64,000 nucleotides of DNA from contig CAZAFB010000005.1 of NCBI GenBank assembly GCA_964484505.1, positions 7,427 through 71,426 of the forward strand. The letters are read 5' to 3'. The notes beneath the pieces are model-generated. The model was given only the letters and a program-made list of their open reading frames with translations, ran no database searches and was not told the origin of the DNA. Of the stretch, positions 19,407 through 64,000 are shown piece after piece (positions within the stretch are counted from its first letter, which is position 1; each line of letters begins with the position of its first letter). Both the position numbers and the translations under genes were made by a program. This stretch comes from an uncultured Bdellovibrionales bacterium (GTDB lineage Bacteria; Patescibacteriota; Minisyncoccia; Moranbacterales; GWC2-37-73).

Positions 19407-20129
19407 CTATTTATCGACAACTAGTCCATCCAGCATATGAATGACTTGATCAGCATATTGATACTGTTCAGGATTATGCGTAACCATCAAAATAGTAATA
19501 TTGAATTGCTTATTGAAATCTTTTAGCAATTCCATTAATTCCTGTCCGGCTTTCATATCCAGATTTCCAGTAGGCTCATCCGCAATCAAAAAACGCGGAT
19601 TAAGCAAGAGCGCCCTAGCCAAGGCAACGCGTTGCTGCTGGCCTCCGGAAAGGTCATATGGCCTATTGTGCATCCATTTGCCCATGCCCACCATCTCAAT
19701 CAATTGCGCTGCACGTTCCAGCGATTGCGCGAAGGTATCTCCTTTTATTAAGGATGGGATGGAAACATTTTCCAGAACAGAAAGTGATTTTATCCAGAAT
19801 GTCTGCTGGGGAATAAAGCCAACAAATTTGTTGCGAAAATCAGCTCGCCAATCCTTGGTTTTTTCCCAAATGCTGCATCCATCTATATATATCTTGCCCG
19901 TCGAAGGACCTTCCAGCCCATAAATAATATGAAGCAATGTTGATTTTCCACAACCGGAAGGTCCTGCCAAAATTGCAAAATCGCCCTCGTTTATGGAAGC
20001 GCTCACACCTTTGAGTACATTTACCGTGGTTGCACCCAAAATGAAATCTTTGGTTACATCTTCCACTCTGATGATTTCTTTTTTTGTTTTTTTTGTTTTT
20101 TCTATTTGCTCCATAATTTCGAGATCCAA
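19407..20129 (-). CDS. ABC transporter ATP-binding protein (MacB/LolD-like)
   Basis: Walker A GPSGCGKST; ABC signature LSGGQQQRVALARAL; Walker B LIADEPTGNLD. Confidence 0.9.
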   Translation of the reverse strand: MDLEIMEQIEKTKKTKKEIIRVEDVTKDFILGATTVNVLKGVSASINEGDFAILAGPSGCGKSTLLHIIYGLEGPSTGKIYIDGCSIWEKTKDWRADFRNKFVGFIPQQTFWIKSLSVLENVSIPSLIKGDTFAQSLERAAQLIEMVGMGKWMHNRPYDLSGGQQQRVALARALLLNPRFLIADEPTGNLDMKAGQELMELLKDFNKQFNITILMVTHNPEQYQYADQVIHMLDGLVVDK

Positions 20130-26100: not shown

Positions 26101-27703
26101 CGTTGCAATAAGTGGCCTTTACATCCGTTGTAATTGAAGCAGGCGTGGTAGCTTTATTGGTCCAGATATTTGTAGCGACATCGTAACGATAGAAAGCATT
26201 ACTGTTGCCTCTTATAGCATAGACGTAATTAGTTGCACCGGATTGCCCATTCCAAATCAAATCACCACCAGTATTTACGGTTCCGGTTCCATCCAGCATC
26301 TGTTTTGGTCCCTCCCACTCGCCATTTGCTCCCAAAGAAGGATCAAATTTCCAAATATCCGTCGTACCGTTACCACGAACGCCATACAATTTATTATCAT
26401 CGGTATTAAGAATCAGTGAACCATAATTCACTGTTGCAGGAGCGACTTCATTCGTTCCCGAAAGCACGGTCCAGGAGTTACCCGCAACATTAAAACGAAG
26501 AAAGCTAGTTGTCGAGCCACTACGAAAATAATAAATATTTCCATTGTAATATGCACCTCTTTGATCCGAAGTGAAAGTATAACCTGTAGTAGCATTTGCT
26601 CTGGCTTCCCAGGTATTTGCCCCCGTACCAGATATCTTGTAACGATAGAATGTTAGAGTGCTAGCACCCCGAGTAAGATAGAAATATCCGTCCTGACCAT
26701 TTACCAAATCACCTCCCGCACCGACAGTTGCAGGAACTGGAGCTAGATTACTCCAATCATTTGTCGCCACATTGTAACGCCAAAAATCAGTACTGCCATT
26801 ACCCCTGACCACGAAAATATTCGTACCATCAGTTTCCACTGCAGCGCCTTGCCAAGGGGTGTCCAAAAGATCTGCAAGCTGGGTCCAAACACCCGTGGCA
26901 ATCGTATATTTGTAAAATTTTTGCGAATATCCTCCAAAAATCGCATATATAGCTCCATTGCCATCATAGATCATGTCCGCACCATAATATGCAGGCACCG
27001 GCAGATCAGCCAATGTATCCCATTTGTTTTCTGCAACATCATAACGCCAGAAAGCTTTGTCTGAATACCCCCTAAAAACATACATATAGCCACCGGTTAT
27101 CACACCAGAATGTCCATATGCAATGGTATCTTGCGGTGGCGCCCAAACGCGCGCGCCCCAAGTTCCTGTGGGTTTCAATTGAATCGCATCTTGAGAACTT
27201 TCAGTACTGACGCTGGCAAGCGTACCTTTGTCCCAATCATTTTTGAAAGTAATTGTTGTTGATTGTGGGGCGCTGAGCGCAAAAGGATTTGCTGCATAAA
27301 CCATGGCAATTGCCACTGCGATCACCATGCTTCGATACGTTGTCTTAATACCGAAAATCGCTGTTTTTTTAGTAAATTTTTTGAAAAGTGCACTTAACTT
27401 CTCTACCAACTTGAGCCTAACATAAGCCTTTCCCAAAACATGTGCTTCATGCTTTTTTGCAACCAAAGCAACTTCCAAATCATCAATTTTACCCCAACGC
27501 AAAACACGCTTGCGAGAAATTTTCTCTCCGCGCTGACAGCTTTTCCAATTCCCGTTTTTATTATCCATACAACGGGTCTTATCTGTAGTATTCTTTTTTG
27601 TTTTTCCTTTTGTCTTTTCTGTCATTTTATATTGTAAAAACAAAGGCCCAGGCCGGCACAAACGCTTTTGGCGTTTTATGTCGACTCGGGCCGGTTTTGC
27701 CAT
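20102..27703 (-). CDS. Giant (about 2500 aa) secreted/surface protein with multiple Kelch-like beta-propeller repeat blocks and C-terminal fibronectin type III domains
   Basis: Recurrent ~50-aa units (…FYRYD..TN.W..L…); Fn3-like segments (APSNPSDISVNP…, TATVSWKTNVSATCTLKFGK); signal-anchor MVIAVAIAMVYAANPFALSA; alternative start at 27625 (MTEKTKGK) lies after a terminator-like hairpin; 28-nt overlap with ABC ATPase gene. Confidence 0.7.
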   Translation of the reverse strand: MAKPARVDIKRQKRLCRPGPLFLQYKMTEKTKGKTKKNTTDKTRCMDNKNGNWKSCQRGEKISRKRVLRWGKIDDLEVALVAKKHEAHVLGKAYVRLKLVEKLSALFKKFTKKTAIFGIKTTYRSMVIAVAIAMVYAANPFALSAPQSTTITFKNDWDKGTLASVSTESSQDAIQLKPTGTWGARVWAPPQDTIAYGHSGVITGGYMYVFRGYSDKAFWRYDVAENKWDTLADLPVPAYYGADMIYDGNGAIYAIFGGYSQKFYKYTIATGVWTQLADLLDTPWQGAAVETDGTNIFVVRGNGSTDFWRYNVATNDWSNLAPVPATVGAGGDLVNGQDGYFYLTRGASTLTFYRYKISGTGANTWEARANATTGYTFTSDQRGAYYNGNIYYFRSGSTTSFLRFNVAGNSWTVLSGTNEVAPATVNYGSLILNTDDNKLYGVRGNGTTDIWKFDPSLGANGEWEGPKQMLDGTGTVNTGGDLIWNGQSGATNYVYAIRGNSNAFYRYDVATNIWTNKATTPASITTDVKATYCNGYVYALLGGNTTTFYRYAENAWTTLTTQPFPATASNGAGLACASDNSIYAIRGNGTANFYRYTDAGGWTALANMVVSGVTYYASIGARIVTDGTDVYVMLGDGETTFLKYSGGVWSKIASTPFAQYYGTDMTYANGKVYALAGLYKDDTWEYTIATDTWRKLPNNQQYTFGRGPYNGASIEYAGGTSFFATTGQGLADVWSYTSGATNFVASGTYVSQSLDLSNVQSWVSFNKADNTPTNTSITYETRTSSDNENWSSWQVISGTTIASPVNRYVQVKVTLNTSDGLYTPTVSDYTISYNSEDDAPTNPTAVDARSQQVGGQALTSGQSYPHEHPYFSWSGAADSGSGIDGYYVYFGTDDGADPVTQGSYQTASSYVVNLALQTGTYYLRVKTKDVNGNVSSSTWDAFTYVYSGVSPYLDEQKTSTADFAAGTLTDVNATSVTDSVRLNSSNGFWNQARLSLALGNIAAGGELALSSCRGNSNHCLYTFGGANGTTFHRYEIETDTWTTSPATVAAAPLAVNNGGFLVAGPAGYLYAARGVATSTFWMYDIENNVWSTIDSAPKNFDYGSNLSYDGSRYIYAMPGNDDAFYKYDTCNNQTSCTPSWTQLPNAEFGNPNTADGQRTYIGGDAIYDERNNIYVIQGNLYPYFAKYSIGDDLSRGEHANSWTSLPMAPEGIYDGGTIVFDNTANSIYVFAGKGRQKFYRYDIESATWYVMPDVPASISYGASMVVYNGYIYATRGGTTTNFYRFNIAENTWELPQRAFFGPSTTAGTSYFLYGNGSVIAADKSDSIYMARGSYDNVFGRYDTDSGTFTELSKLPVGLYQGSSMVFNEDENAVYYIPGNIRTARTGDSKAPYFFRYLTNTNTWEEIITDRPPAKTLVGSSMTYDGSQYIYLTAGNGANTWWRYDTTAAAGSRWSAALPVNASCLTGDGGKIVYKDGYIYLLRGATNATTCRYQISNTTWTVLGALPATAGAGANMIDGHDGYLYVSRGINTNTYYRYNTAQATPGTWESLTSANIPANVTTGGFSVYLANRNWLISGAGTNSFGDGLYNYVIGSETNGTGFAKTGTYESEAMDLVSVYRWANLTVNYVQPNNTTLTFETRTSSNGTDWSSWSPTANDHVFGNTHVMSIVSAPAEFIQVRARFTSNDRIFSPRLDDFTINYYQDIDPPTNPSSITAKSSSTGSSITTNNWYNHAAPYFEWPLAGAGGGAQDNTGGSGVAGYYVYFGTNASADPFVDGSFQAGNSFAGSPSSSGSDYYLKIKTIDNAGFISSTSYDAFVYRYDATAPSNPSDISVNPTGYSSAISYTFSWTPDASDANSGVAMFQYRTGGDTPGVWHDIPDPATVTQTETHYQNNKNTFYLRTVDAAGNTSSPISQDYYYTGGPASPPNNLQVTPSDINNTTNSFTFTWETPSVYGGDPTKLKYYYSINVLPTPYNTTVTTALAAGPGPFATQYGKNTFYIVALNEGGETDLLNNADWNNPAAVNFYAETSAPSQPLNAQAFDTSDRENAEYSVAVKWSPPVTYDSGNFAGYTIYRSDDNVDFTEIASTTGSAYVDTELESRLYYYYVKAKDKTNNYSPASATVQLTPTGKYTRPPAIVKQPAVEAQSFAADFTWATNRTASSFIEYGKTTELGETTGQVDSVTDHAVQVKGLAADTKYFYRVKYIDPDGNIGTSEILTFTTLPPPTISDMVINDVGLNTATVSWKTNVSATCTLKFGKGAFTGSSEETSGSTSHVMKLEGLDSASTYKVMVDALDADNNQFSSDEYTFTTLKLPVVSEVQVENKENVDVPTVVVRYKTDVNTTTLVRFKTADEANFHNFLESQPTTEHVAEIAGMDPAKEYTLSISGVSEAGVEATPVEQKITTKSDSRPPEIVTNRAVGKVNGRGKDAQANIYIKIETNELTRTKVRFGKGVIVSNFEQNTPEDNLNTYHMVTIPAEAGQVYSYQVEAYDDAGNLTLTQPQTIVTEGKKQNATEVVVDTFASRFGWISKLWSK

Positions 27704-38924: not shown

Positions 38925-40004
38925 ATGAAAAAAAATATCTTTTTCATCATCCTGCCAATTGCAATTTTTGCAGGCTTATTGATTTTTAGAAACACAGTAC
39001 AAAAAACAGAGGGCGAAGTTTCTCCTGAAGTTGACAAAATAATGCCAGCAAAAATACAATTTGCCTCCGAAAGTAAAAGTATTGTTATTAAAAATGAATA
39101 TCCTGCGACCATAGGTGCAGACCAAGAGGCTACCATAACTGCAAAAACTTCCGGCACAGTTACCGCCGTCAATTTTGATTTAGGCAAATATGTTGGAAGC
39201 GGCAGCTTGTTAGTGAGAATAGACGACACTAGCGCAAATCTTGCTACTGGAGATAACAATTTAAAAAGCGCGCAAGTTAAACAATTGGAGATAGCCGTGC
39301 AAGAAGCTGAGCGATCCTTAAAACTTGCCAAGAAGAATGAGTCTGAAGACAGCACTTCAGCTACCAGGGCAGCCGAAGATATCGCTAAGCTACAATTGGA
39401 AAACGCAAAGGTAGCATTAAGTAGCGCCCTTGACTCACATAATGTGATCGCCCCCATAAGCGGATCGGTAACATCAAAAAATGTTTCGGTTGGTGATTCT
39501 ATTTCCCAGGGACAAACCCTGGCAACCATAAGCAAAACCGGTCAAATAAAGCTTACTTTTTTTGTCGAACAAGATAAAATAAATTCCTTAACAATTGGCG
39601 ATAAAATCTTGGCGACGACCCCCGATAACATCTCTTTCGAAGCTGTTGTGAGTAATATAGCTCCGCAAGCCGACAGTGTTACAAAAAGATTTCAAGTTGA
39701 TGCTAAGTTTACAGAAAAAATAAATCTAAAGCCAGGAACTATTATTTCGGTAAAAATAACCCGGGAAGAGAATGTCAGCGAAAACAAAAACGTCATATTG
39801 CCACTTTCGGCGATTACAATAGCCCAAAATGAAAACTATCTTTTTGTGGTTGAGAACGATTTGGCCAAAAAAATTAACTTCGAGATTGTCCGCATTTTTG
39901 GGGAAAATGCCGAATTAAAAGCAGACATTGCCGATAACGCGCAAATAGTCATCGAAGGAAACAAGCTTCTGAAAGATGGTAGCAAAATAAAAATTCTGAA
40001 TTAG
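38925..40004 (+). CDS. Efflux membrane fusion protein (HlyD/RND adaptor family)
   Basis: N-terminal TM segment; biotinyl-lipoyl-like hairpins (TITAKTSGTVTAVNFDLG…LLVRID; VIAPISGSVTSKNVSVGD); coiled-coil. Confidence 0.8.
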   Translation: MKKNIFFIILPIAIFAGLLIFRNTVQKTEGEVSPEVDKIMPAKIQFASESKSIVIKNEYPATIGADQEATITAKTSGTVTAVNFDLGKYVGSGSLLVRIDDTSANLATGDNNLKSAQVKQLEIAVQEAERSLKLAKKNESEDSTSATRAAEDIAKLQLENAKVALSSALDSHNVIAPISGSVTSKNVSVGDSISQGQTLATISKTGQIKLTFFVEQDKINSLTIGDKILATTPDNISFEAVVSNIAPQADSVTKRFQVDAKFTEKINLKPGTIISVKITREENVSENKNVILPLSAITIAQNENYLFVVENDLAKKINFEIVRIFGENAELKADIADNAQIVIEGNKLLKDGSKIKILN

Positions 40005-40020
40005 GACTTTAGGATATTAC

Positions 40021-40120
40021 GGACTTGCCTGAAACAAAGAGATGTCCTTCACACTTCACTGATAAATACTTAGGGATCAGAAAACATAGCAACCCATTGG
40101 AACTTGAGGGCAAATGCATA
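40021..40120. repeat. Degenerate copy 3 of the structured intergenic repeat, in the leader of the RND gene
   Basis: Shares ctgaaacaaaga…cccatt…gacttgagggcaaatgc with copies 1 and 2. Confidence 0.4.
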
Positions 40121-43100
40121 ATGTCTAACTATTACCACTTAACTATGGACAAACAACAATCATCGGATTCCAGATATTTGGAAAAACTAGAATTCAAGCC
40201 GGAACTACGCAAGACTTGGTTAAATTTTTTTGTTACCAATTTTCGCGTAGTCGTTCTTTTAATTGTGCTACTCAGCGCCTGGGGCATATATTCATTCGTT
40301 AGCCTTCCTCGAGAATCGGATCCTGAAGTGAAAATCCCCTATGCAATGGTAATTACGACCTTCCCGGGCGCTTCACCTTCAGACATTGAAGAATTGGTTA
40401 CCAAAAAGATTGAGACTGTGATTTCCAGCGTGAAAGGCGTGAAGAAAATAACTTCCGATTCTTCCAATTCAATATCCTCGATAACCGTAGAATTCGATAG
40501 CAGCGAAGATCAAGACGAAGCCTTGCGCAATTTACGTGACAAAGTCTCCACTGTAGACGATCTTCCGGATGATGCAAGCGAGCCATCCGTAAATGAAATA
40601 TCCTTGGATGACACTCCTATTTTTACTTTTTCCATTTCCGGACCATATGATGGATTAACATTGCGAGAATATGCCGAAAAAATTCAAGACGAGTTGGAAA
40701 AAATTCCCGGTGTTCGTGAAGTGAATGTTTCTGGTGGAGACCAGAAAGAATTCGAGGTTGCCTATGATCCACAAAAACTTTCTTTGTATGAAATTACCGC
40801 CAATCAAGCAAATTTGGCAATCAGCGCAACGAATGTCGCCATAGCCGGAGGAAACTACGAGGGCGCTTCTTTCAATTATCCTGTGCGGACAGACGCGCGT
40901 TTCTTCGATGAAAAATCATTAGGTGAAGCTCCGATAAAACATAACGGTAGCGCCATTGTACAGTTAAAGGACATAGCCTCAGTCAAAGAAAAAGCGATCC
41001 AGCGCAATGTATATTCCCGTCTCTCCGTGGAAGGAGACGCGCCTCAAGAAGCGGTGACGATTAGCGTCATCAAAAAAACGGGAGGCTCAATCATCAAAAC
41101 CACTGATGAATGCAAAAAAAGAATCGAGACGATGATGAAAACTTTTCCCGAAGGAGTTTCCTATGACACCACCTCGGACACTTCCAAGTTCATTCGTCGC
41201 GATTTCGACCAACTGACACATGATTTCATCCTTACCCTTATATTGGTGATGACTATATTGTTTCTGATCGTTGGATTTAAAGAAGCTATAGTTGCCGGAC
41301 TGGCCATCCCCTTGGTGTTTTTTGCAACATTCGGCATAATGTTGCTCACAGGCATAACGCTTAATTTCCTTTCATTGTTCTCCTTGCTTCTTTCCTTGGG
41401 GCTCTTGGTTGATGATGCCATTGTGGTAGTCAGCGCGACAAAACAATATATGCGTACGGGTAAATTCACGCCTGAAGAAGCTGTACTGCTTGTGCTTAAT
41501 GATTTCAAAGTGGTGCTTACTTCCACCACACTGGCTACGACTTGGGCGTTTTTACCGCTTCTTTTCTCAACAGGTATCATGGGTTCGTATATTAAATCTA
41601 TTCCCATAACTGTTTCCGTGACACTTATTTCATCATTGATCATTGCTTTGATTGTAAATCATCCCCTCGCCGCAATCCTGGAGCGCATCCGCCTTACTCG
41701 AAACATTTTCCGCATAGACATCGCATTACTTTTGATTTTGGCAATCGTCGGTTTCTTAAGCAAGTCCACTTTCGGCAGCGCACTCTTCGCAATTTCCCTG
41801 ACAATGATCGTGTGGCTTGTTTGGTGGTATCGCAAAAAGGGCAAAAGGCAGCTAATCGCTAATGAGGCTTTGGCAAAAGAAGAATGGAAAAATGACGAGC
41901 TGATCAAGAAAAAACTGGCCTCCCAGGGAAGCACCGAGGATACTTCTTTTTCCAGCAAGCTTATTCACGGCATCATCCACTTCGATAAAGTAATACCCGT
42001 CTACGAGAAATATCTCAAGCTGGTTATTTCCACCAAAAAATCACGCTGGATTACTTTACTTGCTACACTTGTTTTATTTATCGGTGCCATAATCCTGCCT
42101 ATAACAGGCGTTGTTCCTTCGGAATTTTTTCCTGCTTCAGACCAAGATAATATCTATGTAAATATCGAAGCTCCATCTGGATTGAATCTCGACAAGACAG
42201 ATTACATCACCAGAAAAGTCGAGGAAAAACTTCTGGCTTTTCCTCAGGTAGCCAATTTTTCCACAGTAATAGGAAAAAGCGGTTCTTCAGGTCATCGTAT
42301 CAGCGGCTCCATGAGCGGCTCGACCCATTTGGCTTCCATAACGATAACCTTGGTTGAGAAAGAACTTCGCGAGGAAACTTCCTATGAGCTTGAAAAAGAT
42401 ATCAGAAATGCTATTTCAGGCGTTGAAGGAGCAAAAATAACCGTGGAATCACAACGTGGCGGACCGCCATCAGGCAGCGCCTTCGAAGCGCAAATTCGCG
42501 GAGATGATTTGCAAGCTTTAGACACTATAGTACAAGATTTGCAAATAAAACTATCCGAAATTAAAGGTGTTGTAAATATAGACTCTTCTCTCAAAGAAGC
42601 GCCGGCTCAATACACTTTTGCACTCAACCCCGTGAAAATGGAGCTATATGGCCTCAATGCTTCTTACGTAGGTTCATCTATCCGCATGGCAATTTCCGGA
42701 GTAGACGTCTCCACAATCATCAAAAACAACAAGGAATTCGATGTTATTGCGCGTTTCGACAAAAGCAAGCTTCCAGATCTTGAATCAGTCCAGAATATCC
42801 AACTCACAAACTTGCAAGGAAATCCCGTGTATATCAAAGATGTTGCAACAGTAAAGTTGGAGCCATCTATTGAAACTATAAGCAGAATAGATCAAAAACG
42901 CGTAGCAATTCTGAGTGCGGGAGTTGAAGGAACAACCAGACCCAATGACGTACTAGCCCAATTCCAAAAGAAAGTCTCGGAAGAATACTCTCTGCCCGAG
43001 GGATATGAAATAACCTATGGCGGCGAAAATGAACAAAATCAAGAATCAGTCATGTCGATTATCCGCGCAATGGCGATTGCCGCAGTTTTGATAATTTCAA

Positions 43101-43534
43101 CACTGATCATCCAATTCAATTCCTTCAGAAAATCTATGATCGTTTTGGTTACTTTGCCTCTGGCCTTGATCGGTGTCTTTATCGGCATGGCAGCATTCGG
43201 AGTATCTTTGAGTTTCCCTGGTCTTATCGGGGTGCTGGCGCTGTTTGGTATTGTGGTAAAAAACGCAATCATTCTGATTGATAAAATAAACCTAAATCTT
43301 AAAAGCGACATCGCTTTTGATGATTCAATCATCGATGCCGGTAAATCGCGTCTAGAAGCTATATTTATCACTTCCATATGCACAATTGCCGGCATTATCC
43401 CAATAACTCTTTCCAATGAGATGTGGACCGCCTTGGGCAGCGCCGTGATTTTCGGCCTCACAATTTCATCATTCTTCACACTCTTTATTATTCCGATACT
43501 GTTCAAGACATTCATTAAATCGGAAGATCATTAA
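40121..43534 (+). CDS. RND-family efflux transporter (AcrB/HAE-type), 12 TM
   Basis: About 1130 aa with two large extracytoplasmic loops and duplicated six-TM halves; start set at MSNYY because the longer ORF (40025) runs through the intergenic repeat. Confidence 0.85.
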   Translation: MSNYYHLTMDKQQSSDSRYLEKLEFKPELRKTWLNFFVTNFRVVVLLIVLLSAWGIYSFVSLPRESDPEVKIPYAMVITTFPGASPSDIEELVTKKIETVISSVKGVKKITSDSSNSISSITVEFDSSEDQDEALRNLRDKVSTVDDLPDDASEPSVNEISLDDTPIFTFSISGPYDGLTLREYAEKIQDELEKIPGVREVNVSGGDQKEFEVAYDPQKLSLYEITANQANLAISATNVAIAGGNYEGASFNYPVRTDARFFDEKSLGEAPIKHNGSAIVQLKDIASVKEKAIQRNVYSRLSVEGDAPQEAVTISVIKKTGGSIIKTTDECKKRIETMMKTFPEGVSYDTTSDTSKFIRRDFDQLTHDFILTLILVMTILFLIVGFKEAIVAGLAIPLVFFATFGIMLLTGITLNFLSLFSLLLSLGLLVDDAIVVVSATKQYMRTGKFTPEEAVLLVLNDFKVVLTSTTLATTWAFLPLLFSTGIMGSYIKSIPITVSVTLISSLIIALIVNHPLAAILERIRLTRNIFRIDIALLLILAIVGFLSKSTFGSALFAISLTMIVWLVWWYRKKGKRQLIANEALAKEEWKNDELIKKKLASQGSTEDTSFSSKLIHGIIHFDKVIPVYEKYLKLVISTKKSRWITLLATLVLFIGAIILPITGVVPSEFFPASDQDNIYVNIEAPSGLNLDKTDYITRKVEEKLLAFPQVANFSTVIGKSGSSGHRISGSMSGSTHLASITITLVEKELREETSYELEKDIRNAISGVEGAKITVESQRGGPPSGSAFEAQIRGDDLQALDTIVQDLQIKLSEIKGVVNIDSSLKEAPAQYTFALNPVKMELYGLNASYVGSSIRMAISGVDVSTIIKNNKEFDVIARFDKSKLPDLESVQNIQLTNLQGNPVYIKDVATVKLEPSIETISRIDQKRVAILSAGVEGTTRPNDVLAQFQKKVSEEYSLPEGYEITYGGENEQNQESVMSIIRAMAIAAVLIISTLIIQFNSFRKSMIVLVTLPLALIGVFIGMAAFGVSLSFPGLIGVLALFGIVVKNAIILIDKINLNLKSDIAFDDSIIDAGKSRLEAIFITSICTIAGIIPITLSNEMWTALGSAVIFGLTISSFFTLFIIPILFKTFIKSEDH

Positions 43535-55564: not shown

Positions 55565-56302
55565 TTAATTATTAATCACTTCACTATTTGAGGCTTGATT
55601 TTCATTGTTTATAGCTTCCGAATTTTCCGTAGCAGGAAAAATATCATTATAATCCTGCGCTGTAGCTGTTGAATCGTTAGCCGTTTCTGCCTGAGCTGTT
55701 TCGCTCTGCTGACTGTCCGCGGAAAACAGCATGTCACTTATTTTTCCCACCAATTTGTCGATGCCATCCAATGCGCCATCAATGCCACTTTTCGCCCAAG
55801 AAGGATATTTTGTCTCGGCAAGCCAAGTGCGCATATCCAGAATTGATTGTTGAAAAACAGCAAACGCATCGAGAAACCTAAGCTCAGCACTTTCTTTTTC
55901 CTGCGTTTTATTTTCGACTTCATTATCCAAAAAATTTTTGGATTTTATACCACCTTTTTTGACAATCGAAACCAAGTTTTGACTCTTTTCTCCACCAACA
56001 GCAACTATGTAATTACCAGTTGGAATTTCAGATTCCGAAAAATCTTTCGAAAGGAAGAATTTTCCATCCTCACAATCTGCAATTATTGTTTTCAACGAAT
56101 CTTTACTTTCCCCATTTTTAAACAGCTCAATTTTTGTTTGTTTTTCATTGCATTCTCCTTGAATATTAACCATGCTCCCCTCCTGATTAAGCGCCCAACT
56201 TGTCTGAGCCAGAGCTTCTGGCGAAACAATGCAAAAAAGTCCTAAGAATAAAGCGGCTTTTAAAATCATGGGTTTGTTTTTATTCATAATGTTTGTTATC
56301 AT
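55565..56302 (-). CDS. Secreted hypothetical protein
   Basis: Signal peptide; acidic C-terminal tail. Confidence 0.45.
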   Translation of the reverse strand: MITNIMNKNKPMILKAALFLGLFCIVSPEALAQTSWALNQEGSMVNIQGECNEKQTKIELFKNGESKDSLKTIIADCEDGKFFLSKDFSESEIPTGNYIVAVGGEKSQNLVSIVKKGGIKSKNFLDNEVENKTQEKESAELRFLDAFAVFQQSILDMRTWLAETKYPSWAKSGIDGALDGIDKLVGKISDMLFSADSQQSETAQAETANDSTATAQDYNDIFPATENSEAINNENQASNSEVINN

Positions 56303-57318
56303 TTACCTGTCCTGCAATTATCTTTTTTATAATTATGACAAAAAAATTATTTATTGCCTTTTTTGTAGTTGTTTTTTTTCTTGTTGGAATATATTTTTTT
56401 CGTTTTGAGCATCTGGCAAAAAAGTCTGACGGCATTTTTGTCCGATGCAATGAAAAATATACTTTTCTCAATAATAACCTTGATTGTAGCTCCATCGACC
56501 AAGATATTGACCAGTTGAGCAGTCTTCACCAAAATATCAAATTCTTCTTGGAGCAAAGTAAGAGCAACGGGGAAATTACAGAGGCTGGTGTATTTTTCAG
56601 AGACTTAAACTCTACTCGTTGGTTTGGCATCAACGAAAATGTGAATTTTTACCCTGCCAGTTTATCCAAGCTTCCCTTTTCAATGATGATGTACAAAGCT
56701 GCAGAAATTGACAAGGAAATATTGAACGAGCCAATACAAATTGATGACATCGATTTAAACCTCAATGAAGGTCAACATTATCAGCCATCGCAATTATTAA
56801 CTCCCGGAACATACTCAGTCCGCGAACTTCTTCGCAGACTTCTCGTTTTTTCCGACAACGCACCGACAAATAAACTAATGGAACTTTCCGCTCCCCTCAG
56901 CCAACCAATTTTGAATGATCTAGGAGTTTTATTTCCTCCCGATACTCAATCCGGGGAAGCAAAATGGAATATAACGCCAAAAATTTACGCCAATTTTTTC
57001 CGAATATTATACAATTCTTCTTACTTGCGCCCGGAATATTCAAACGACATCCTTGAACAACTTTCTCAAGCTAAGTTTAAGAATGGGTTGTCTGCCGGCT
57101 TGCCTGAGGAAATAGCAACAGCGCATAAATTTGGAGAAGCATCAATGATTGATGCAAAAACCGGTGGGCATATTTCCGTGCTAAGTGATTGCGGCATTAT
57201 TTATAAAAGGAACAGCCCTTACATTCTTTGCATCATGACACAGGGTGGAGATTATCAAAAACTGGAACAGGTAATTCAAAACATTTCTAAAGCAATATAT
57301 CAGTATTCCCTAGAATAA
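56293..57318 (+). CDS. Class A beta-lactamase-like serine hydrolase, paralog of 12366-13403
   Basis: SLSKLP (SxxK), FSDN (SDN), HKFGE; same C-terminal DCGIIY…YILCIMTQGGDY block as the paralog. Confidence 0.6.
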   Translation: MLSFTCPAIIFFIIMTKKLFIAFFVVVFFLVGIYFFRFEHLAKKSDGIFVRCNEKYTFLNNNLDCSSIDQDIDQLSSLHQNIKFFLEQSKSNGEITEAGVFFRDLNSTRWFGINENVNFYPASLSKLPFSMMMYKAAEIDKEILNEPIQIDDIDLNLNEGQHYQPSQLLTPGTYSVRELLRRLLVFSDNAPTNKLMELSAPLSQPILNDLGVLFPPDTQSGEAKWNITPKIYANFFRILYNSSYLRPEYSNDILEQLSQAKFKNGLSAGLPEEIATAHKFGEASMIDAKTGGHISVLSDCGIIYKRNSPYILCIMTQGGDYQKLEQVIQNISKAIYQYSLE

Positions 57319-57333: not shown

Positions 57334-60300
57334 TTAATAATCAGTCTCAATATATAGAGACGCTATATCCAATCCTACTACCGATGCCGCCGTATTGTTA
57401 GTTTTCCAAAATCTGCTAGCTAGCAAAGTTGTCGCAGCTGGCAATTGAGTTCCGGGGGTAGCAGCTGTAAGGGTCCCGGAAGCCTGATAGGCAGTGCCTA
57501 AACGTGTCACGCGATAATTGACAACGTTGTTAACATTGGTTGGAGCGAACAGTACCAACTCATACATATCTGCAGAAGACGTGTTGGCAGGAAAATTTGC
57601 CCCAAGATCAATAGGGGTCTGTGCGGCACTCCCCCCATAACATATCTGCCAATTATTGCTTGTAGAAAGTTGACACATACCAATGGCATTCGTCAAAGTA
57701 CTTGGTTCAACATTGGTCGGAACAGCCGTCGAAGATGTGAATCCGACAAATGCTCTTGCTGCAGAAATAGCATCTGTTGATCCGAATCGTGCAACATATG
57801 TGAATCCTCCCAAGCCAGATCCATTGCCAACAGTAAATTGTGCAGTACCGTTTCGCATGCTTGCTATATATCCTGCAGTTGTAGTCGAAACAATTCCGGC
57901 TCTTTTCATACGTGTAAAGAGATTGGTAGTTGCGACACTTCTTGAAGTTAAGGCTGTCCCCCCATTGGAAACTATCGTTTGCGCCGCCATCCCAAGCACG
58001 CCTGGGGCTGTCGTTGCATTTCCAGGCGGATTCCACCAAGCAACTTTATTCATAGCCACCATAGGTTGCACGATCGAATCTAGACCCGACGGACCTATCC
58101 ATTTTGGCATCATTCTTCCAGCTATAGATTTGGCATAAAAATCCATCGTCCCAGCCGCTGGTGCGGTAGGTTCTGTGGTAATCCCAGTCATGTTGATTGC
58201 AGCATCCGTACCGTTGAGTCCCAAGGTTTGAGTCGAACTATCGAAAGTAAGTCCCGCATTGGCACCAAATGACCCGCTACTGTTGTATTGTATTTGGGTG
58301 TTGGAACCGGCAGGAGATCCGCCTGTGACACTGCCGATACAATCAGTCCAGGATGTGTTTTGATAACAACGAAACTTATTTAGCGCAGTCGAATAATACA
58401 TAGCTCCAACAGTTCCTGTCGGTTCGGCACTGCCCGTGTCTAAGACGAGTAAGTCTGGTGTAGCGGAAGATGTTCCACCATCGCCAATCTGCACATTGCC
58501 TGTGCCTGTTCCTGCCGGTTGAATGTTAATATTTCCGGAAGCGTTAGTAATTGTTACACCTGCGCCCAAAGTAAGCGTAGTGACTCCAGAAGCAGTCAAT
58601 GCCGTGTCAGATGAATCGATAGTAGTGGTATTGCTGCCTGAATCGAAAGTTAATCCGGAGCTCGTGGAAGCAATGGTTAGAGCACCGGCCGCCGTCAAAT
58701 TGGTGCCCAATCCAGTAATGTTGTTGGAATTGAAAGCCAAGCCAGTAGAAGAAAAATTATATTCATCTGTTCCATTTACGGCTATATTTAGCGTCTTCCC
58801 GGTCAAAACATTTCCAGTCAAATCTCCGGAATTATCACGATAAAATCCCACATCCGTGCCTGTTGGAGTTCCGGTGGTTTCTTGAAACAACAAATTGGAA
58901 AGGCTACCCAAGTCATATCCTGCTGCATTGATATCACCTGTCCAAGGAGTTTGTGATCCGCCACCTGGAGCTGTCCAGTATGGCGTATTGGTCGCCGTGT
59001 TATATGCCAAAACCCAACCGTTTGTTCCTGATCCTGCAAGTTTAGTGGGAGATCCAGAGGTGCCACCGTAAATCAAATCCCCAGGAGCGGTCATCGGGTT
59101 AGCCATCAAGGTCACTGTGCCGCTTGGCAAAGTCGCGTTGGTAGTTCCAGTGGAAGTAAGAGTGACTGAATTTCCACCTGAAGTTGCCAAAGTCGATCCA
59201 CTGGCCAAAGTCAAAGTTCCGGTAGTTGAGCTTACGGTCAAGCCGTTATATGTACCTCCTGTCACCGCGCCGTTAGCGTCTATCTTAAACTGCGAAACGC
59301 TGTTTTTTTGCAAATCAACAAAATTTCCCGTGAAAGAACCTGTACTGTTGGCAAAATTCATGAGCAAACCGGTTCCGGAAAAAGCACTGGTGGCCTGATT
59401 AAAAACAGAAAGGTTCGAGCTGGTGATTGTTGTTGATTCCGCCTTGAGGGCATTTCCGGCACTCGTACCTGTTGTCTTTCCATAAACTCCCACGCCTGTG
59501 CCATATGCTGAGTTATCTCCATAAACACCATAGGTTCCTCCTTGACCATAGATGGCATTGTTCACCGCATATGCATATATTCCATGCCTGGCTCCGGCAG
59601 CTCCACTTGAGTTAGTCACATGAATTCCATAGGTAGTGTCAGTTCCCCAAGAAAGAGTGTTGTTGAGAACCATTTTGTAACCATAATTGGTATAACCTGC
59701 GACAGATTGAGTAATGGTAGGATTATGATAAATACTGCTTGTTCCATTGGAATCAGTCATTGAACCTGCAATGTCCAGAGTTGCGGAGGGAGCATTTGTG
59801 CCGATTCCAATTCTGTTGTTCAAAGCATCTATCGTCAGAGTATCACTATCAAAATTAAGCGCATTAGCAACATTAGCCAAAGTTACTGTGGAAGCTGCTG
59901 CTGAAGAAAGATTTAACGCTCCCGCCGAATTCAAAGCAAGCGTACCGGAAGTTGCCGTTGAAATCGTAAGCCCACCAGAAGTATTCGTCCAAGCAGAAGT
60001 ACCGCCGGAATTCATGGTTACTGCGCCGGTCGTGTTACCAATACTCAAGGTGGAGCCGGCATTAGTGCCGATGCTAGCGCTGCCATTGTTGTTGAGTGTT
60101 TTGGCAGTAAATGCCGCCGGCAATGCGCCAATCATTTTGCGAGGACTCATTTCAGGATCATTTCCTACGGTCACTCCCAGATAGAGAGTTTGGTTGAAAT
60201 CAATAGCAGAAAAACTGGAAACAGTACCCATCATTACCGAAAAGAGTCCGCTTTTGACATAAACACGGTTAGTAAGATCATCGCTGTTTGCCCAGGAAGA

Positions 60301-60777
60301 ATATGGGTTAGAAACACAAAGTGTGTTGGTTCCAGTAGTGATGCCAGTTACGACTGCCGATTCTTTGAGGGTCGTGTTCCAAATTGTTTGCCCGACGGCG
60401 ATCGAATTTTCATTAGTGCCGGTCGCATAGACGATGCTCGTAAAACCACTGCCGCCGCATCCTGCAGCATTACGTGTTACGGTCGTGCTGGCTGTTTCGG
60501 TCCAAAGATTGGCATTGTTCAAAGATTCCGTCCAAACTGTCGATCCACCAGCCGCTGCATCATATAGTCTGAAAACAATGTCATAAGCCCCATCAGACAC
60601 AGGAATGGCGCTGCCGTCAGTTAACTTACCTTGATAGTTGATGTTTTCATTGAAAGCTGCGCTCGCTGCTGGAGATCCAACAAACAAAAACATAAAAATA
60701 GCCACAAAAAAGAGTAGCTCTCCTACTCGTAGCCCCCTAGTTACGGATTTTTTGTTTGTGTTAATTTTGATGCGCAT
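57334..60777 (-). CDS. Large (1147 aa) secreted Gly/Thr/Ser/Asn-rich surface protein (putative beta-helical adhesin or S-layer-like)
   Basis: Signal peptide; low-complexity G/T/S/N-rich repeats throughout. Confidence 0.55.
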   Translation of the reverse strand: MRIKINTNKKSVTRGLRVGELLFFVAIFMFLFVGSPAASAAFNENINYQGKLTDGSAIPVSDGAYDIVFRLYDAAAGGSTVWTESLNNANLWTETASTTVTRNAAGCGGSGFTSIVYATGTNENSIAVGQTIWNTTLKESAVVTGITTGTNTLCVSNPYSSWANSDDLTNRVYVKSGLFSVMMGTVSSFSAIDFNQTLYLGVTVGNDPEMSPRKMIGALPAAFTAKTLNNNGSASIGTNAGSTLSIGNTTGAVTMNSGGTSAWTNTSGGLTISTATSGTLALNSAGALNLSSAAASTVTLANVANALNFDSDTLTIDALNNRIGIGTNAPSATLDIAGSMTDSNGTSSIYHNPTITQSVAGYTNYGYKMVLNNTLSWGTDTTYGIHVTNSSGAAGARHGIYAYAVNNAIYGQGGTYGVYGDNSAYGTGVGVYGKTTGTSAGNALKAESTTITSSNLSVFNQATSAFSGTGLLMNFANSTGSFTGNFVDLQKNSVSQFKIDANGAVTGGTYNGLTVSSTTGTLTLASGSTLATSGGNSVTLTSTGTTNATLPSGTVTLMANPMTAPGDLIYGGTSGSPTKLAGSGTNGWVLAYNTATNTPYWTAPGGGSQTPWTGDINAAGYDLGSLSNLLFQETTGTPTGTDVGFYRDNSGDLTGNVLTGKTLNIAVNGTDEYNFSSTGLAFNSNNITGLGTNLTAAGALTIASTSSGLTFDSGSNTTTIDSSDTALTASGVTTLTLGAGVTITNASGNINIQPAGTGTGNVQIGDGGTSSATPDLLVLDTGSAEPTGTVGAMYYSTALNKFRCYQNTSWTDCIGSVTGGSPAGSNTQIQYNSSGSFGANAGLTFDSSTQTLGLNGTDAAINMTGITTEPTAPAAGTMDFYAKSIAGRMMPKWIGPSGLDSIVQPMVAMNKVAWWNPPGNATTAPGVLGMAAQTIVSNGGTALTSRSVATTNLFTRMKRAGIVSTTTAGYIASMRNGTAQFTVGNGSGLGGFTYVARFGSTDAISAARAFVGFTSSTAVPTNVEPSTLTNAIGMCQLSTSNNWQICYGGSAAQTPIDLGANFPANTSSADMYELVLFAPTNVNNVVNYRVTRLGTAYQASGTLTAATPGTQLPAATTLLASRFWKTNNTAASVVGLDIASLYIETDY

Positions 60778-60804
60778 GCTGACAATTTTTGGCCTGAAAT
60801 AGAT

Positions 60805-60832
60805 AAAAAACGGGCGTTCACCCGTTTTTTTC
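60805..60832 (-). terminator. Intrinsic terminator aaaaaacgggcgttcacccgtttttt (copy of the 38255 hairpin)
   Basis: Lies downstream of the 61060-62052 gene on the minus strand and about 28 nt upstream of the 57334-60777 start. Confidence 0.5.
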
Positions 60833-61059
60833 TCTACCTCTATATATGTTAATTATAGCAGGTTTTTGGCCCGAAGTCAACTGTTCTTTTTAGCTAAGAT
60901 AAGGCAATTTTAATAATTACAGCTCCCAGGAGGTTCAACCTCCCAAATGGAGGTTGAACCTCCACGAAGATCTTCCGAAAAATAAAACTCCCACAAAGGG
61001 AGTTTAAATGATGTTGACAAAAATTTGATACGTTTTTAGAGGAAGTTCGGCAAAAAATT

Positions 61060-62052
61060 TTAGCGGCCACTTCTTGCTTTTTTGATGATCCAGCGATTAT
61101 ACGTTCTAAACAGAAGAATCAAAACAGCCAGACCAACAAAAGCGATGAGCAACAATTGCCAAGGAATAATCCAAAAGTTTAAAACCATAGGTGCGGCTTG
61201 ACCTTGAGGCAAAACTACTGTCGCAATCGCTGCGTATCTACCAAAATGAAAATGTTTGAATTCATATTGCGCTTTCTGCCAAAAACTTTGAGGGCCATCT
61301 TTGTTTTCTTGCGCTTCCCAAATAAGGTCATAACGACGCGTACTATTGGGCAAAACATTACCGCCTTCTTCTTCGGAATTAGTCACTTTTAGCTCAGCTG
61401 CTTTTTTATTAAAAATATTTTTGATTTCAATTGTGCCGCCCGGCTTGAAGTGAACATTGCCTGTGTTTTCCACGCGCAGTTCCATATTCACCGGCACGTA
61501 TTCAAAGAATGATTTGTTATTCTTAAGTGAAAAACTTTTTATATTACCACCCTGTTTGGCTTCGCCGGTAACAGTGAGTAAAACCAAGGAACCGGTTTTG
61601 TAGTCAACGCTGACTCCATCCGGACCAGCCTGTTCATTCTTGCTAGGCGCGAAGAATGCAGCCGCATAATGACCTCCTGGTTCGGCATCTTTGGGGATTT
61701 CAATATTAATTATTACCGTTTGCCAATCCAGTGGGTTTATGGTGATGTTTCCCTCTGGCAAAGACATCCAGGAAGCCAGATCATGTGTAGATTCCTTTTC
61801 CGTACCTAAATCGGCAAATTCAGGCTCTCCGGCTCCGTTTTCTTTGGCTGTGAAATTGGTTGCGGTTGCTTTTACGGTTACTGCGTCTTTGGTTTCGTTA
61901 TATAGTTTGACGATATATTGCACCGTTTCTCCAGGATTTCCTGCCAATTCTTTAACCGGCGGAGAAACAGTAAGAGCGTGCGCATCGCGCACGCCTAAGA
62001 GCAAACTGGCAAAGGCAAACAGAGTTGCAATAGATACGGAATATTTTTTCAT
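61060..62052 (-). CDS. Cell-surface protein with signal peptide and C-terminal TM anchor (DUF916/DUF3324-like architecture)
   Basis: Signal peptide, beta-rich ectodomain, C-terminal WIIPWQLLLIAFVGLAVLILLF anchor plus basic tail. Confidence 0.4.
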   Translation of the reverse strand: MKKYSVSIATLFAFASLLLGVRDAHALTVSPPVKELAGNPGETVQYIVKLYNETKDAVTVKATATNFTAKENGAGEPEFADLGTEKESTHDLASWMSLPEGNITINPLDWQTVIINIEIPKDAEPGGHYAAAFFAPSKNEQAGPDGVSVDYKTGSLVLLTVTGEAKQGGNIKSFSLKNNKSFFEYVPVNMELRVENTGNVHFKPGGTIEIKNIFNKKAAELKVTNSEEEGGNVLPNSTRRYDLIWEAQENKDGPQSFWQKAQYEFKHFHFGRYAAIATVVLPQGQAAPMVLNFWIIPWQLLLIAFVGLAVLILLFRTYNRWIIKKARSGR

Positions 62053-62075
62053 ATGGCTATTTGGCCCCCAAATAA

Positions 62076-63167
62076 TCAGAATTTACCTGTCGCTACCAGT
62101 GTTAAGGTGTCCGCATAATCTCCAGGAGCGGTTGAAGCGGCTACCGCAGCTATGGTAGAAACATCAAAAGACGCTGACGATACGGCTGCGGTTGTGCTTG
62201 CTATGGTTTGAAATGAAGTGCTTATCGCTAAGTCGGAAGAAGAATCATGATCGAATGCCTCATCCAAAGTTATGTTTGAAGCGTTTTTCGCATATACTCC
62301 GAACCCTATGGTTCCTGCAGAAACTGCGGTACTCGCTCTGGATGTCAAAGTTGTCGCAGGACTCGAATTATACATACCACTGCCGGCTGCTGCGTTAGTG
62401 TCTTTCACTTCTATAACCAATCCGGACTGAGCATTAGTGGAAGCGGAGACAGTTGTTGGCGCACCATTACCTGGAACAGAGGCTGCGCCTACTTCATCGG
62501 CGGTAGCATAGCGAAGCGCCGCGGAAGTGATTGTCCCAAAACCGATTTGCGTATCAGTGATACTAAAAGTTAAAGTCGGATCAACTTTTCCAGTAATTGA
62601 AATCTGATCACTCGCCACAGTTACAAGAGCAATGTTTCTGGTATCAACATCGCTTCCATTGTTTGTTTTCACGGTAACAATAGATGCAGTGGCAGAATTG
62701 GCTGTGCCCAACACTCCGGTATTGCCAGATATTCTCACACCATAAGTCGTGCTGTTTGAAATGGCGCTGGAAAAAGTAACCGTTATCGTATCATAGCTAG
62801 AAGAACCAGATCCCTGAGTACAACTTGCGGAAAGTGTCCCAGGAAGAGCCGTAGCACTGTCATGCAAACTAGTTGTTGCTGCTGTCAACGTTCCCGCAGT
62901 TCGACACCACTGCCCATCATTCGCATCTGGAAAAACTATTATCAAGCTTCCGCTGGACATGCCGCCAGTTGATGAAGTAGTAAAGATTATTTCATGAGTT
63001 GCTCCAGTTGCCAAACTTGCCACATTACGATTCATATAGTCCCTTGCTTGCATTGATGCAGCCTCGGCATTAAAAACTGGTGTCACGATACTTGCAATCA
63101 AGATAAGTGCCAGTACATCCCTTCCGAGAAGTAATAGGTATTTTAATTTAAATCCGATTTTTTGCAT
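62076..63167 (-). CDS. Secreted Thr/Ser-rich pilin-like/adhesin-like protein, C-terminus …GDYADTLTLVATGKF
   Basis: Signal peptide; C-terminal strand motif shared with 63265-63978. Confidence 0.5.
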   Translation of the reverse strand: MQKIGFKLKYLLLLGRDVLALILIASIVTPVFNAEAASMQARDYMNRNVASLATGATHEIIFTTSSTGGMSSGSLIIVFPDANDGQWCRTAGTLTAATTSLHDSATALPGTLSASCTQGSGSSSYDTITVTFSSAISNSTTYGVRISGNTGVLGTANSATASIVTVKTNNGSDVDTRNIALVTVASDQISITGKVDPTLTFSITDTQIGFGTITSAALRYATADEVGAASVPGNGAPTTVSASTNAQSGLVIEVKDTNAAAGSGMYNSSPATTLTSRASTAVSAGTIGFGVYAKNASNITLDEAFDHDSSSDLAISTSFQTIASTTAAVSSASFDVSTIAAVAASTAPGDYADTLTLVATGKF

Positions 63168-63264
63168 ATATTTATATTTTTATTTTACTTTCAGAGAACA
63201 TCTTTTCTCTTGTGAATATGATAGCATGTTTTTGTCAAACCGACCACACGGCTGTTAATAACTT

Positions 63265-63978
63265 TCAGAATTTTCCGGTCATCACAACTGTCAAATTTGC
63301 CGAATAATCTCCCGCATCACTGATACCGCTAATATTGCCGATGAAAGAAGCGGTGTAATTGGTGTATGTGGATTGATTGGCTGATTCAGCAATAGTGTCT
63401 CCGGAAACGAATTTGTAGGCATCCGTTGTGCCATAGCCTGTTGCCGCTTGTCCGTTCCCCCCGCTGGGGTCATTGCCAATCGTAGGATTATTATTCTGCC
63501 TTAGGTTGAAACCGAATTGTTCATTGCCTGTGGATGGACCGGTTGGGCTTGATAGCGGGGTGATGGTGTGTGATGTCGAAGAAAGAGAGTTACCGTACAC
63601 GGAAATGGCATAGCCGCTTTTTGCCGTGGTGGCCGCCCGAAACGTAGCCGTGTCGGCTTTTACCAAATTATTTACCAATGTCCCCAGGTCTGCCGAATCT
63701 TTGGTTATTTCAAAAGTAAGCACCGACTCATTGCCAATCATTGCCAAAAAACCGGCGTCCATAATGTATGATGAACTGCGCAGCGCACCCGTTCCTACTT
63801 CGCCCAGCATGTTTTGCTCGACATATTCATTGGAAATCTGCCTACCTCCCCCAATACTGATTGCATCCGCGCTAATTAAATAATTTGAACTGTTCATGTC
63901 TGCGTGCACGCCAAAAGCCGCGCCCATGCACGCTATTATCAACAATACAATGAAAATATTTTTTGTTTTACAAATCAT
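63265..63978 (-). CDS. Secreted pilin-like/adhesin-like protein, C-terminus …GDYSANLTVVMTGKF
   Basis: Signal peptide; paralogous C-terminal motif G-D-Y-x-x-x-L-T-[LV]-V-x-T-G-K-F. Confidence 0.5.
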   Translation of the reverse strand: MICKTKNIFIVLLIIACMGAAFGVHADMNSSNYLISADAISIGGGRQISNEYVEQNMLGEVGTGALRSSSYIMDAGFLAMIGNESVLTFEITKDSADLGTLVNNLVKADTATFRAATTAKSGYAISVYGNSLSSTSHTITPLSSPTGPSTGNEQFGFNLRQNNNPTIGNDPSGGNGQAATGYGTTDAYKFVSGDTIAESANQSTYTNYTASFIGNISGISDAGDYSANLTVVMTGKF

Positions 63979-64000
63979 TTTTATTTTTCATCCTTTTCCC

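Follow-up and report, generated by a model that had tools for sequence, protein, structure and literature searches.

Near the end of a 64,000-nucleotide stretch of contig CAZAFB010000005.1 (the window), four consecutive minus-strand genes all encode proteins with signal peptides, and the question that they raise is what these proteins would build at the cell surface. The genes, taken from the list of open reading frames (ORFs), encode proteins of 237 (63265-63978), 363 (62076-63167), 330 (61060-62052) and 1147 amino acids (aa; 57334-60777), with gaps of 97, 23 and 282 nucleotides (nt) between them in this order. An earlier note on this DNA had drawn the same layout; its coordinates are exact, and by inspection the four N-termini follow the Sec pattern of a charged, then a hydrophobic, then a small-x-small segment, with predicted cleavage (slash) at ...GVHA/D, ...NAEA/A, ...DAHA/L and ...AASA/A. 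AlphaFold2 predicts a helix at the N-terminus of both the 330-aa and the 363-aa protein. The note had also taken the locus for a pilin-like surface system, which holds on the points that could be tested, but it missed the likely specific identity, namely the Pam pilus system of the Candidate Phyla Radiation (CPR). Altogether, the three genes at 61060-63978 are considered, with a probability of about 80%, to form a reduced Pam-type pilus operon, the product of which would be an extracellular fibre assembled without an usher.

Probable cap, pilin and chaperone genes

The Pam system has been described in Ca. Mycosynbacter amalyticus, a member of the Saccharimonadia within the CPR (Troman et al., bioRxiv 10.64898/2026.03.03.709456). 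PamA and PamB form filaments that were resolved by electron cryomicroscopy (cryo-EM) and are joined by donor-strand exchange; each has a nine-strand N-terminal sandwich, a single linker strand and an incomplete immunoglobulin (Ig)-like C-terminal domain, and the donated linker is among their most conserved regions (10.64898/2026.03.03.709456). PamT, which has one domain, forms the tip, and PamE is another pilin; PamC and PamD are chaperones of the PapD/FimC type that carry a transmembrane (TM) helix at the C-terminus, and PamR is an RbmA-like TM anchor (10.64898/2026.03.03.709456). Genes for a tail fibre-like protein and for ATP synthase are found together with pam operons, the pilins are reported to be exclusive to CPR bacteria, and Pam pili have been proposed to make the first contact with the host cell (10.64898/2026.03.03.709456).

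The 237-aa protein matches the NCBIfam model of PamT over its full length (NF058579; residues 8-237 against 6-241 of 241; E 3.3e-49, 167.5 bits). It is made of a signal peptide, a conserved N-terminal region of ~50 aa and a Pam pilin C-terminal domain (~aa 80-237), and scores 133.3 bits against the domain model Pam_pilin_C (NF058581), for which the cut-off in NCBIfam release 20 is 55 bits, compared with 240 for PamT and 300 for PamR (NF058578). Its C-terminus, ...GDYSANLTVVMTGKF, and that of the 363-aa protein, ...GDYADTLTLVATGKF, are identical at 10 of 15 positions, as the earlier note had seen and correctly quoted. This likeness is not due to chance, since profiles of the two families align over ~150 columns (residues 76-237 with 190-363; hhalign probability 99.2%, E 9e-20). 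A terminal motif, aG-x-Y-x-x-x-[LI]-T-x-[VI]-x-T-G-[KR]-[FY], is kept in both families. Together, the NF058581 domain and the alignment between families support the view that the two small proteins are pilin-like paralogs.

The 363-aa protein is the probable fibre subunit. Its AlphaFold2 model, based on 39 sequences (predicted local distance difference test score, pLDDT, 88.3; predicted TM-score, pTM, 0.58), shows nine strands at aa 40-181, an unpaired segment at ~186-198 and a nine-strand C-terminal domain, the last strand of which lies at residues 354-361. The major-pilin architecture of an N-terminal sandwich, a linker, an Ig-like C-terminal domain and paired cysteines is found in this model, the comparison with PamA and PamB being made with their published description. 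The N-terminal beta-sandwich domain (aa 38-186; 62610-63056), with nine predicted strands, carries Cys88 and Cys116, conserved in 34 and 35 of the 39 family members. It is followed by the inter-domain linker DQISITGKVD (aa 187-196; 62580-62609), a candidate donor strand suggested by conservation and by the AlphaFold2 model. In the model of the monomer, this linker does not pair with other strands, and its DQISITGKV part (187-195) is the second most conserved 9-mer of the family, with 3.13 bits per residue where the mean is 2.41; the first and last strands of the C-terminal domain are also within the top ten conserved segments. The preprint describes this pattern of conservation for PamA and PamB too. 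The C-terminal, or acceptor, domain (aa 197-363; 62079-62579), delimited with hhalign, AlphaFold2 and hidden Markov models (HMMs), ends in ...GDYADTLTLVATGKF, and the pilin matches a broad HMM of the Pam C-terminal domain (181 sequences) at E 9e-25. A Foldseek search of the PDB with the pilin model returned generic multi-Ig matches only (integrins and, weakly, CupB6), and PDB sequence searches with single proteins and family profiles gave no match for the pilins or the 1147-aa protein.

Gene order was surveyed in one genome per GTDB species, where 397 loci contain a relative of the cap protein; the best 80 of these 397 belong almost all to Saccharibacteria or Patescibacteria metagenome-assembled genomes (MAGs). 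Synteny was counted in the loci with at least 5 kb of downstream sequence (n = 49). A chaperone-family gene is present on the same strand in 49 of the 49, in the order cap (T), 0-3 pilins (P), chaperone (C). The arrangement T-P-P-C is found in 28 loci, T-P-C, as here, in 10, T-C in six and T-P-P-P-C in three, and the 237-aa gene is the first of this conserved T-P-C core. The co-conservation in all 49 loci, and the chaperone-type fold that Foldseek finds for the anchored protein, speak against the possibility, raised with the earlier note, that the genes are not co-conserved or encode unrelated folds with no subunit-like complementation.

In a canonical operon (L025), the PamT equivalog, a Saccharibacteria homolog, scores 290.3 bits (cut-off 240) and the PamR equivalog 332 bits (cut-off 300), both pilins pass the domain cut-off, and the PamR gene comes right after the chaperone gene. 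ATP synthase genes lie upstream in canonical pam operons, as in the preprint. The chaperone profile built on the window protein matches the chaperone genes of canonical operons at E 1e-40 to 1e-130, and the 330-aa gene occupies the chaperone (PamD) position of operons that carry PamT and PamR equivalogs; for the chaperones of two canonical operons, NCBIfam gave no match with an E of 0.01 or less. The likeness to the M. amalyticus system includes the PamT-like first gene, the pilin architecture, a Sec-exported, TM-anchored PapD-like chaperone, the lack of an usher, the order T, pilins, chaperone, and a tail-fibre-like large protein nearby. However, one pilin and one chaperone are present here, compared with PamA, PamB and PamE plus PamC and PamD in M. 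amalyticus, and the locus has neither a PamR anchor nor ATP synthase genes within 10 kb.

Several points weigh against a Pam-type operon. The PamT score of the 237-aa protein (167.5 bits) lies below the equivalog cut-off of 240, and by the NCBI rule this protein is a PamT-like relative, not an equivalog; the 363-aa pilin matches Pam_pilin_C weakly (27.7 bits, cut-off 55). Because of these scores, both proteins are considered divergent relatives. Sequence beyond the window was read from JGI 3300022666 Ga0248168_1000297 (99 kb; locus L001), which carries the exact 237-aa protein. In the window and 10 kb upstream, PamR, a second chaperone and further pilins were not found, the region holding only two pilin-domain genes and one chaperone gene, and no ATP synthase gene was found in the 10 kb that flank the locus on each side. 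For PamR, the model NF058578 did not match the upstream proteins, and an HMM of the proteins in PamR position (51 sequences) gave no match with an E of 0.1 or less in either the window or L001; the corresponding cluster of ~311-aa proteins is present in 50 of the GTDB loci. It is on account of the two pilin-domain genes, the single chaperone and the lack of a PamR-family member that the locus is called a reduced pam operon. Lastly, the closest GTDB genome record (L007, CAZCMV010000003.1, an 88-kb contig, 80% identity) is labelled Bdellovibrionales.

The closest named homologs lie outside the Saccharimonadia and are labelled Patescibacteria group, Kerfeldbacteria, Moraniibacteriota and Buchananbacteria. 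The window itself holds a peptidoglycan-centred envelope gene set, and no outer-membrane markers were seen in it. Rfam and tRNA scans of the window and of L001 gave no match of use for placing the host. Labels other than CPR occur on several Pam-locus records (L007, L011, L013, L018, L021, L059, L067, L069 and L079), which are assigned to Bdellovibrionales, Gammaproteobacteria, Magnetospirillaceae, Nanoarchaeia, Acidoferrum and Verrucomicrobiia. Either the labels or the binning of these MAGs are wrong, or the pilins are not as exclusive to CPR bacteria as reported.

The probable anchored chaperone and its relatives in WxL loci

The 330-aa protein had been likened to DUF916/DUF3324 proteins with a single C-terminal TM helix, and Pfam, PDB sequence searches, Foldseek and hhalign all agree with this. 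Its AlphaFold2 model (42 sequences; pLDDT 86.5) consists of two Ig-like beta-sandwich domains and a C-terminal helix, the TM helix (aa 298-329; nt 61066-61161) being modelled with a pLDDT of ~97. In Pfam, the protein reaches 28.7 bits against PF06030 (WxLIP_PGBD, formerly DUF916), for which the gathering cut-off is 27.3, and it is not matched by the DUF3324 model. The top three Foldseek matches in the PDB are Enterococcus faecium WxLIP (9i25_C and 9i1y, E 2e-11), these entries representing the protein free and bound to a long WxL protein. The next matches are the chaperones CfaA, CsuC, Caf1M and DraB and a FimC-containing complex (E 2e-9 to 3e-7), and with chaperones of chaperone-usher systems the target-normalised TM-score is 0.49-0.59 at a sequence identity of 7-12%. 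RbmA of Vibrio cholerae is also among the matches (E 3e-9), with a query-normalised TM-score of 0.26, lower than for WxLIP and the chaperones; tandem Ig/FnIII-like domains are common to RbmA, PamR and the 330-aa protein.

Sequence profiles lead to the same relatives. Seven WxLIP sequences were taken from seven annotated WxL loci of Enterococcus, Listeria, Lactiplantibacillus and Lactococcus, and the CPR family of anchored proteins (108 sequences) aligns with these Firmicute WxLIPs over 276 columns (hhalign probability 99.4%, E 1.7e-21), spanning both domains and the TM helix, with control pairs at 0.2% or less. An HMM of the seven WxLIPs matches the 330-aa window protein at E 1.3e-6, and the two best sequence matches of the CPR chaperone-family profile in the whole PDB are EfmWxLIP1 (E 0.014). 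The Pam-type anchored chaperone and Firmicute WxLIP are homologs along the entire protein. This link is a new element that is absent from the Pam preprint, where WxL and DUF916 are not mentioned (Troman et al.); in the literature searched, no paper was found that links CPR bacteria with WxLIP or DUF916, or WxL proteins with donor-strand assembly. The entry of the TM helix and the cytoplasmic tail (aa 297-330) contain P297, W298, Y318 and N319, invariant across 42 members, with the tail consensus R-x-Y-N-R-W-I-I-K-K. In Firmicute WxLIP, unlike the CPR chaperone, the TM helix has been reported to lack sequence conservation. The invariant residues suggest that the chaperone tail serves beyond anchoring.

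Whether the likeness extends to the rest of the locus was also considered. WxL clusters of Bacillota (Enterococcus, Listeria, Lactiplantibacillus) have an anchored protein made of DUF916, DUF3324 and a TM helix, to which the 330-aa protein is homologous, and the gene grammar is similar: a small single-domain protein, a larger protein with the same C-terminal domain, an anchored protein of ~330-350 aa, and a large protein. For example, the order in a Listeria innocua WxL locus is a WxL protein of 237 aa, a WxLIP of 341 aa and a large protein of 821 aa. The observation of the earlier note that the gene sizes mirror WxL complexes while WxL motifs are lacking is therefore borne out on both counts. 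Moreover, according to a prediction by Hassan et al. (2023, PMC10599100), a beta-strand of WxLIP is placed within the WxL domain, which resembles strand complementation of the chaperone type. However, the present locus has no WxL domain or dual W-x-L motif and no small LPXTG protein, its host probably belongs to another phylum, and the literature presents WxL proteins as surface proteins attached to peptidoglycan and not as fibres. Pfam gave no WxL match in the four window proteins or in 39 members of the pilin family, and an HMM of the WxL domain found nothing in the window. Profiles of the WxL and Pam domains, compared directly, gave a hhalign probability of 0.7% (P 0.077, against 0.06-0.9 for unrelated controls). 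Three motif blocks that seemed by eye to be common to the two domains were rejected, because the P values (0.25-0.38 with a small profile, 0.077 with 181 sequences) fall within those of the controls.

Chaperone-usher pili of diderm bacteria (Pap/Fim, CFA/I with CfaA, archaic Csu with CsuC, Caf1M, DraB) are a further point of comparison, having in common with this locus the two-Ig chaperone fold, incomplete Ig-like acceptor subunits and, as would be expected here, donor-strand exchange. They differ in that their chaperone is soluble in the periplasm, whereas the one encoded here is anchored in the membrane, and in that neither an usher nor an outer membrane is present here; no gene of the locus has an usher-like Pfam match. 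Moreover, the putative donor strand lies between two domains instead of at the N-terminus, and the subunit has an extra N-terminal domain.

The large protein and competing explanations

The 1147-aa protein is rich in Thr (15.3%), Gly (12.6%), Ala (11.2%) and Ser (10.5%). It has no match in Pfam or NCBIfam and no sequence match to any solved structure, and hhalign did not relate any part of it to the chaperone or to the Pam and WxL domains. In an exhaustive search, the protein proved to be modular, with an N-terminal module (~1-340) common to a few large proteins, repeats, and a C-terminal domain of ~290 aa (~aa 857-1147; nt 57337-58209), ending in ...LYIETDY. The full-length query retrieved 11,410 representatives with an E of 0.001 or less and 921 with an E of 1e-30 or less; among the 150 best matches, most are to the C-terminal domain. 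With clustering at 50% identity, this domain is represented in more than 900 clusters, and it stands at the extreme C-terminus in 132 of 159 matches; it belongs to no Pfam family and has no solved relative by sequence. It also matches the C-terminal part of the 640-position phage family phrog_13925 at E 3e-32. This family has no known function, the related CPR proteins are called tail fibre-like in the preprint, and the position of the domain resembles that of a receptor-binding tip domain; the 1147-aa protein differs in its cellular context and its signal peptide. In close relatives, the N-terminal ~300 aa of the large protein are kept and the remainder varies, a pattern that is typical for receptor-binding proteins of the exchangeable type.

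Two sites lie in the 282-nt gap between the chaperone gene and the 1147-aa gene, both on the minus strand and both recognised by consensus match only. After the chaperone gene there is a terminator-like hairpin with an 8-bp stem followed by TATTTTT (60985-61005; L001 12974-12994). Ahead of the 1147-aa gene there is a promoter-like site (60852-60880; L001 13099-13127) made of TTGACT, 17 nt and TATAAT, with an upstream TG, which matches the consensus at 11 of 12 positions and has the top score in a 10-kb region. On this evidence from sequence, the 1147-aa gene is probably transcribed separately from T-P-C. The four-gene complex of the earlier note is thereby reduced to a three-gene core: T, P and C belong together, and membership of the 1147-aa protein is not supported, given the lack of a related domain and the separating sites. 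The protein is probably a neighbouring modular adhesin or receptor-binding protein, its gene being a frequent neighbour of pam loci and its link to the pilus putative.

Large proteins with a different relation to the chaperone gene were seen at T-C loci that lack a two-domain pilin (L015, L020, L021, L032, L069, L079 and L080; for example, L032 9983-15077). Here, a secreted protein of 780-1280 aa, with no Pam domain, is encoded directly after the chaperone gene (overlapping it or less than 50 nt away). At six of the seven loci, it ends in K-[SN]-I-F-G or P-S-I-F-G after a charged low-complexity stretch, a tail that may serve as a sorting signal at the C-terminus or as a strand for complementation. 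A hidden C-terminal Pam or WxL domain was searched for in the 1147-aa protein and in the large proteins of the T-C loci, and was not present.

It could nevertheless be argued that the system has four genes and that the 1147-aa protein is an adhesin borne on the pilus, attached through its N-terminal module like the large protein of WxL loci. Its gene comes next after the chaperone gene in the same orientation, the N-terminal ~300 aa of the protein are conserved in L007 and L008 with a variable remainder, and large proteins with the same N-terminal ~80 aa occur near 14 of 86 loci, six of the 14 being copies of the locus on this contig. A tail-fibre-like protein has been reported consistently beside pam operons (10.64898/2026.03.03.709456), and the T-C loci place a large protein of 1050-1280 aa directly after the chaperone. 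These points have to be set against the hhalign result, which gave no Pam-, WxL- or chaperone-related domain in this protein, and against the terminator-like and promoter-like sites in the gap; moreover, the C-terminal domain recurs in over 900 unrelated contexts, as well as in a phage family, and in many loci a related large gene lies upstream on the opposite strand. A pilus-borne role of this kind is considered unlikely. A different objection is that no fibre is made at all, and that the anchored WxLIP-like protein holds the 237- and 363-aa proteins at the surface as a stoichiometric WxL-type complex, which would decorate the cell wall or bind a host. The full-length homology of the anchored protein to WxLIP would fit, as would the description of WxLIP as a protein that binds and stabilises surface WxL proteins and does not build fibres; the T-C loci also indicate that a cap and a chaperone can occur without a polymerising pilin. 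However, the 363-aa protein has the N-domain, linker and acceptor domain through which PamA and PamB polymerise in the cryo-EM structures, the locus is homologous and syntenic to canonical pam operons, and no WxL domain is detectable. A complex without a fibre is thus quite improbable, clearly more so than an adhesin carried by the pilus.

The remaining explanation, that the proteins are sortase-dependent or SipW/TasA-type pilins of the Gram-positive kind, or a structural module derived from a phage, could draw on the monoderm-type host, on secreted beta-rich subunits and on the PHROG match of the 1147-aa C-terminal domain. It is essentially refuted. The subunits end in ...TGKF, with no LPXTG, hydrophobic stretch or charged tail, and no sortase or SipW-type peptidase, for which the earlier note had proposed a search, is encoded at the locus as far as the window covers it, or in the 10 kb upstream beyond the end of the window. 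The neighbours of the locus are the housekeeping genes DnaG, RpoD, BipA, Obg and PBP1a, not phage genes, and the three core proteins have no meaningful PHROG matches. A reduced Pam-type operon is therefore retained as the best account of the T-P-C genes.

Flanking genes, assembly and wider meaning

The window ends within the gene next to the cap gene, and the earlier note was right that the locus may extend past 64000: three more same-strand genes lie directly upstream on L001, encoding proteins of 84 (7814-8068), 476 (8071-9501) and 102 aa (9690-9998). In window numbering, these genes (L001 7814-9998) would span 63981 to ~66165, and the last 20 nt of the 102-aa membrane-protein gene are present at 63981-64000, its stop codon being 2 nt ahead of the start codon of the PamT-like gene. 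The 84-aa protein is Cys-rich and secreted or anchored, the 476-aa protein has an N-terminal TM segment, Ig-like domains (weak Big_13 match) and a C-terminal TM helix, and the 102-aa protein is a multi-pass membrane protein. The three genes are kept only in close relatives (seven loci), and their products do not match the Pam models. The 476-aa protein was considered as a relative of PamR or of the chaperone on account of its similar topology, and was rejected, with no detectable similarity (hhalign P 0.11). Further upstream of the operon lies a non-coding stretch of ~1 kb (L001 6784-7813). It contains a short ORF fragment whose motif ...YNFLRPHEALGYQAP... resembles an integrase core, and a hairpin with a 17-bp stem followed by a T-run (L001 7347-7384), and may be a transposase remnant adjoining the locus.

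How would such a set of proteins be assembled? The ideas that a fibre forms, that donor strands are exchanged and that the subunits follow a given order are carried over here from the cryo-EM and AlphaFold work on M. amalyticus, on the basis of the homology, predicted folds and synteny of the locus. All three T, P and C products would be exported by Sec, and the 330-aa chaperone would be held in the cytoplasmic membrane by its C-terminal helix. As a PapD- or WxLIP-like protein, it would insert a strand into the groove of the incomplete Ig-like domain of each newly exported subunit. The 237-aa PamT-like protein, which has the acceptor domain and no N-terminal sandwich, would initiate the fibre and become its distal tip. 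Copies of the 363-aa pilin would then join at the base, each giving its DQISITGKV linker to the groove of the preceding subunit by donor-strand exchange. Since no PamR homolog is present at the locus, anchoring and termination must differ from those in M. amalyticus; it is speculation that the last subunit would be kept on the anchored chaperone, or that the upstream 476-aa protein would take this role.

Other features of the window touch on surface functions. A second giant surface-type protein of 2533 aa, with many Kelch repeats, fn3 and Ig-like domains, is encoded at 20102-27703 (minus strand). Two paralogous Beta-lactamase2-family proteins of 341 and 345 aa, with N-terminal membrane anchors, are encoded at 56293-57318 (plus strand) and 12366-13403 (minus strand), and one of the two genes converges with the 1147-aa gene, with only 15 nt between it and the stop codon of the latter. 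At 38925-43534 (plus strand) lie genes for a HlyD-type membrane-fusion protein and an AcrB-family RND transporter of 1169 aa, with no TolC-like gene nearby, a pair that is unusual if the host is a CPR bacterium with a small genome.

The homology of the chaperone raises the question of a common origin. It is tentatively proposed, with the odds leaning somewhat against it, that the Pam pili of CPR bacteria and the WxL clusters of Bacillota are two branches of one ancient usher-free system of monoderms, in which the WxL and Pam C-terminal domains would be homologous but diverged beyond the reach of profiles. The homology of the chaperones is the only part of this proposal that is demonstrated here. 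If it were true, an anchored PapD-like protein would hold incomplete Ig-like domains by strand complementation and pass them on, WxLIP would be an assembly chaperone and not a peptidoglycan- or host-binding protein, and the reduced loci (cap, pilin, chaperone, large protein) and the loci with cap, chaperone and large protein would be intermediates.

Pam pili are so far the only structurally characterised fibres of CPR bacteria that are not type IV pili. A stripped-down version, in a lineage whose closest named relatives fall outside the Saccharimonadia, helps to define the minimal parts list of the system; it also leads one to ask how fibre growth ends, and what anchors the fibre, when PamR is lacking. 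The homology between its chaperone and the WxLIP of Enterococcus, Listeria and Lactobacillus joins two bodies of literature between which there are no citations. This homology suggests that WxLIP may be reinterpreted as an assembly chaperone, and that the usher-less strand-complementation systems of bacteria without an outer membrane may have a common origin.

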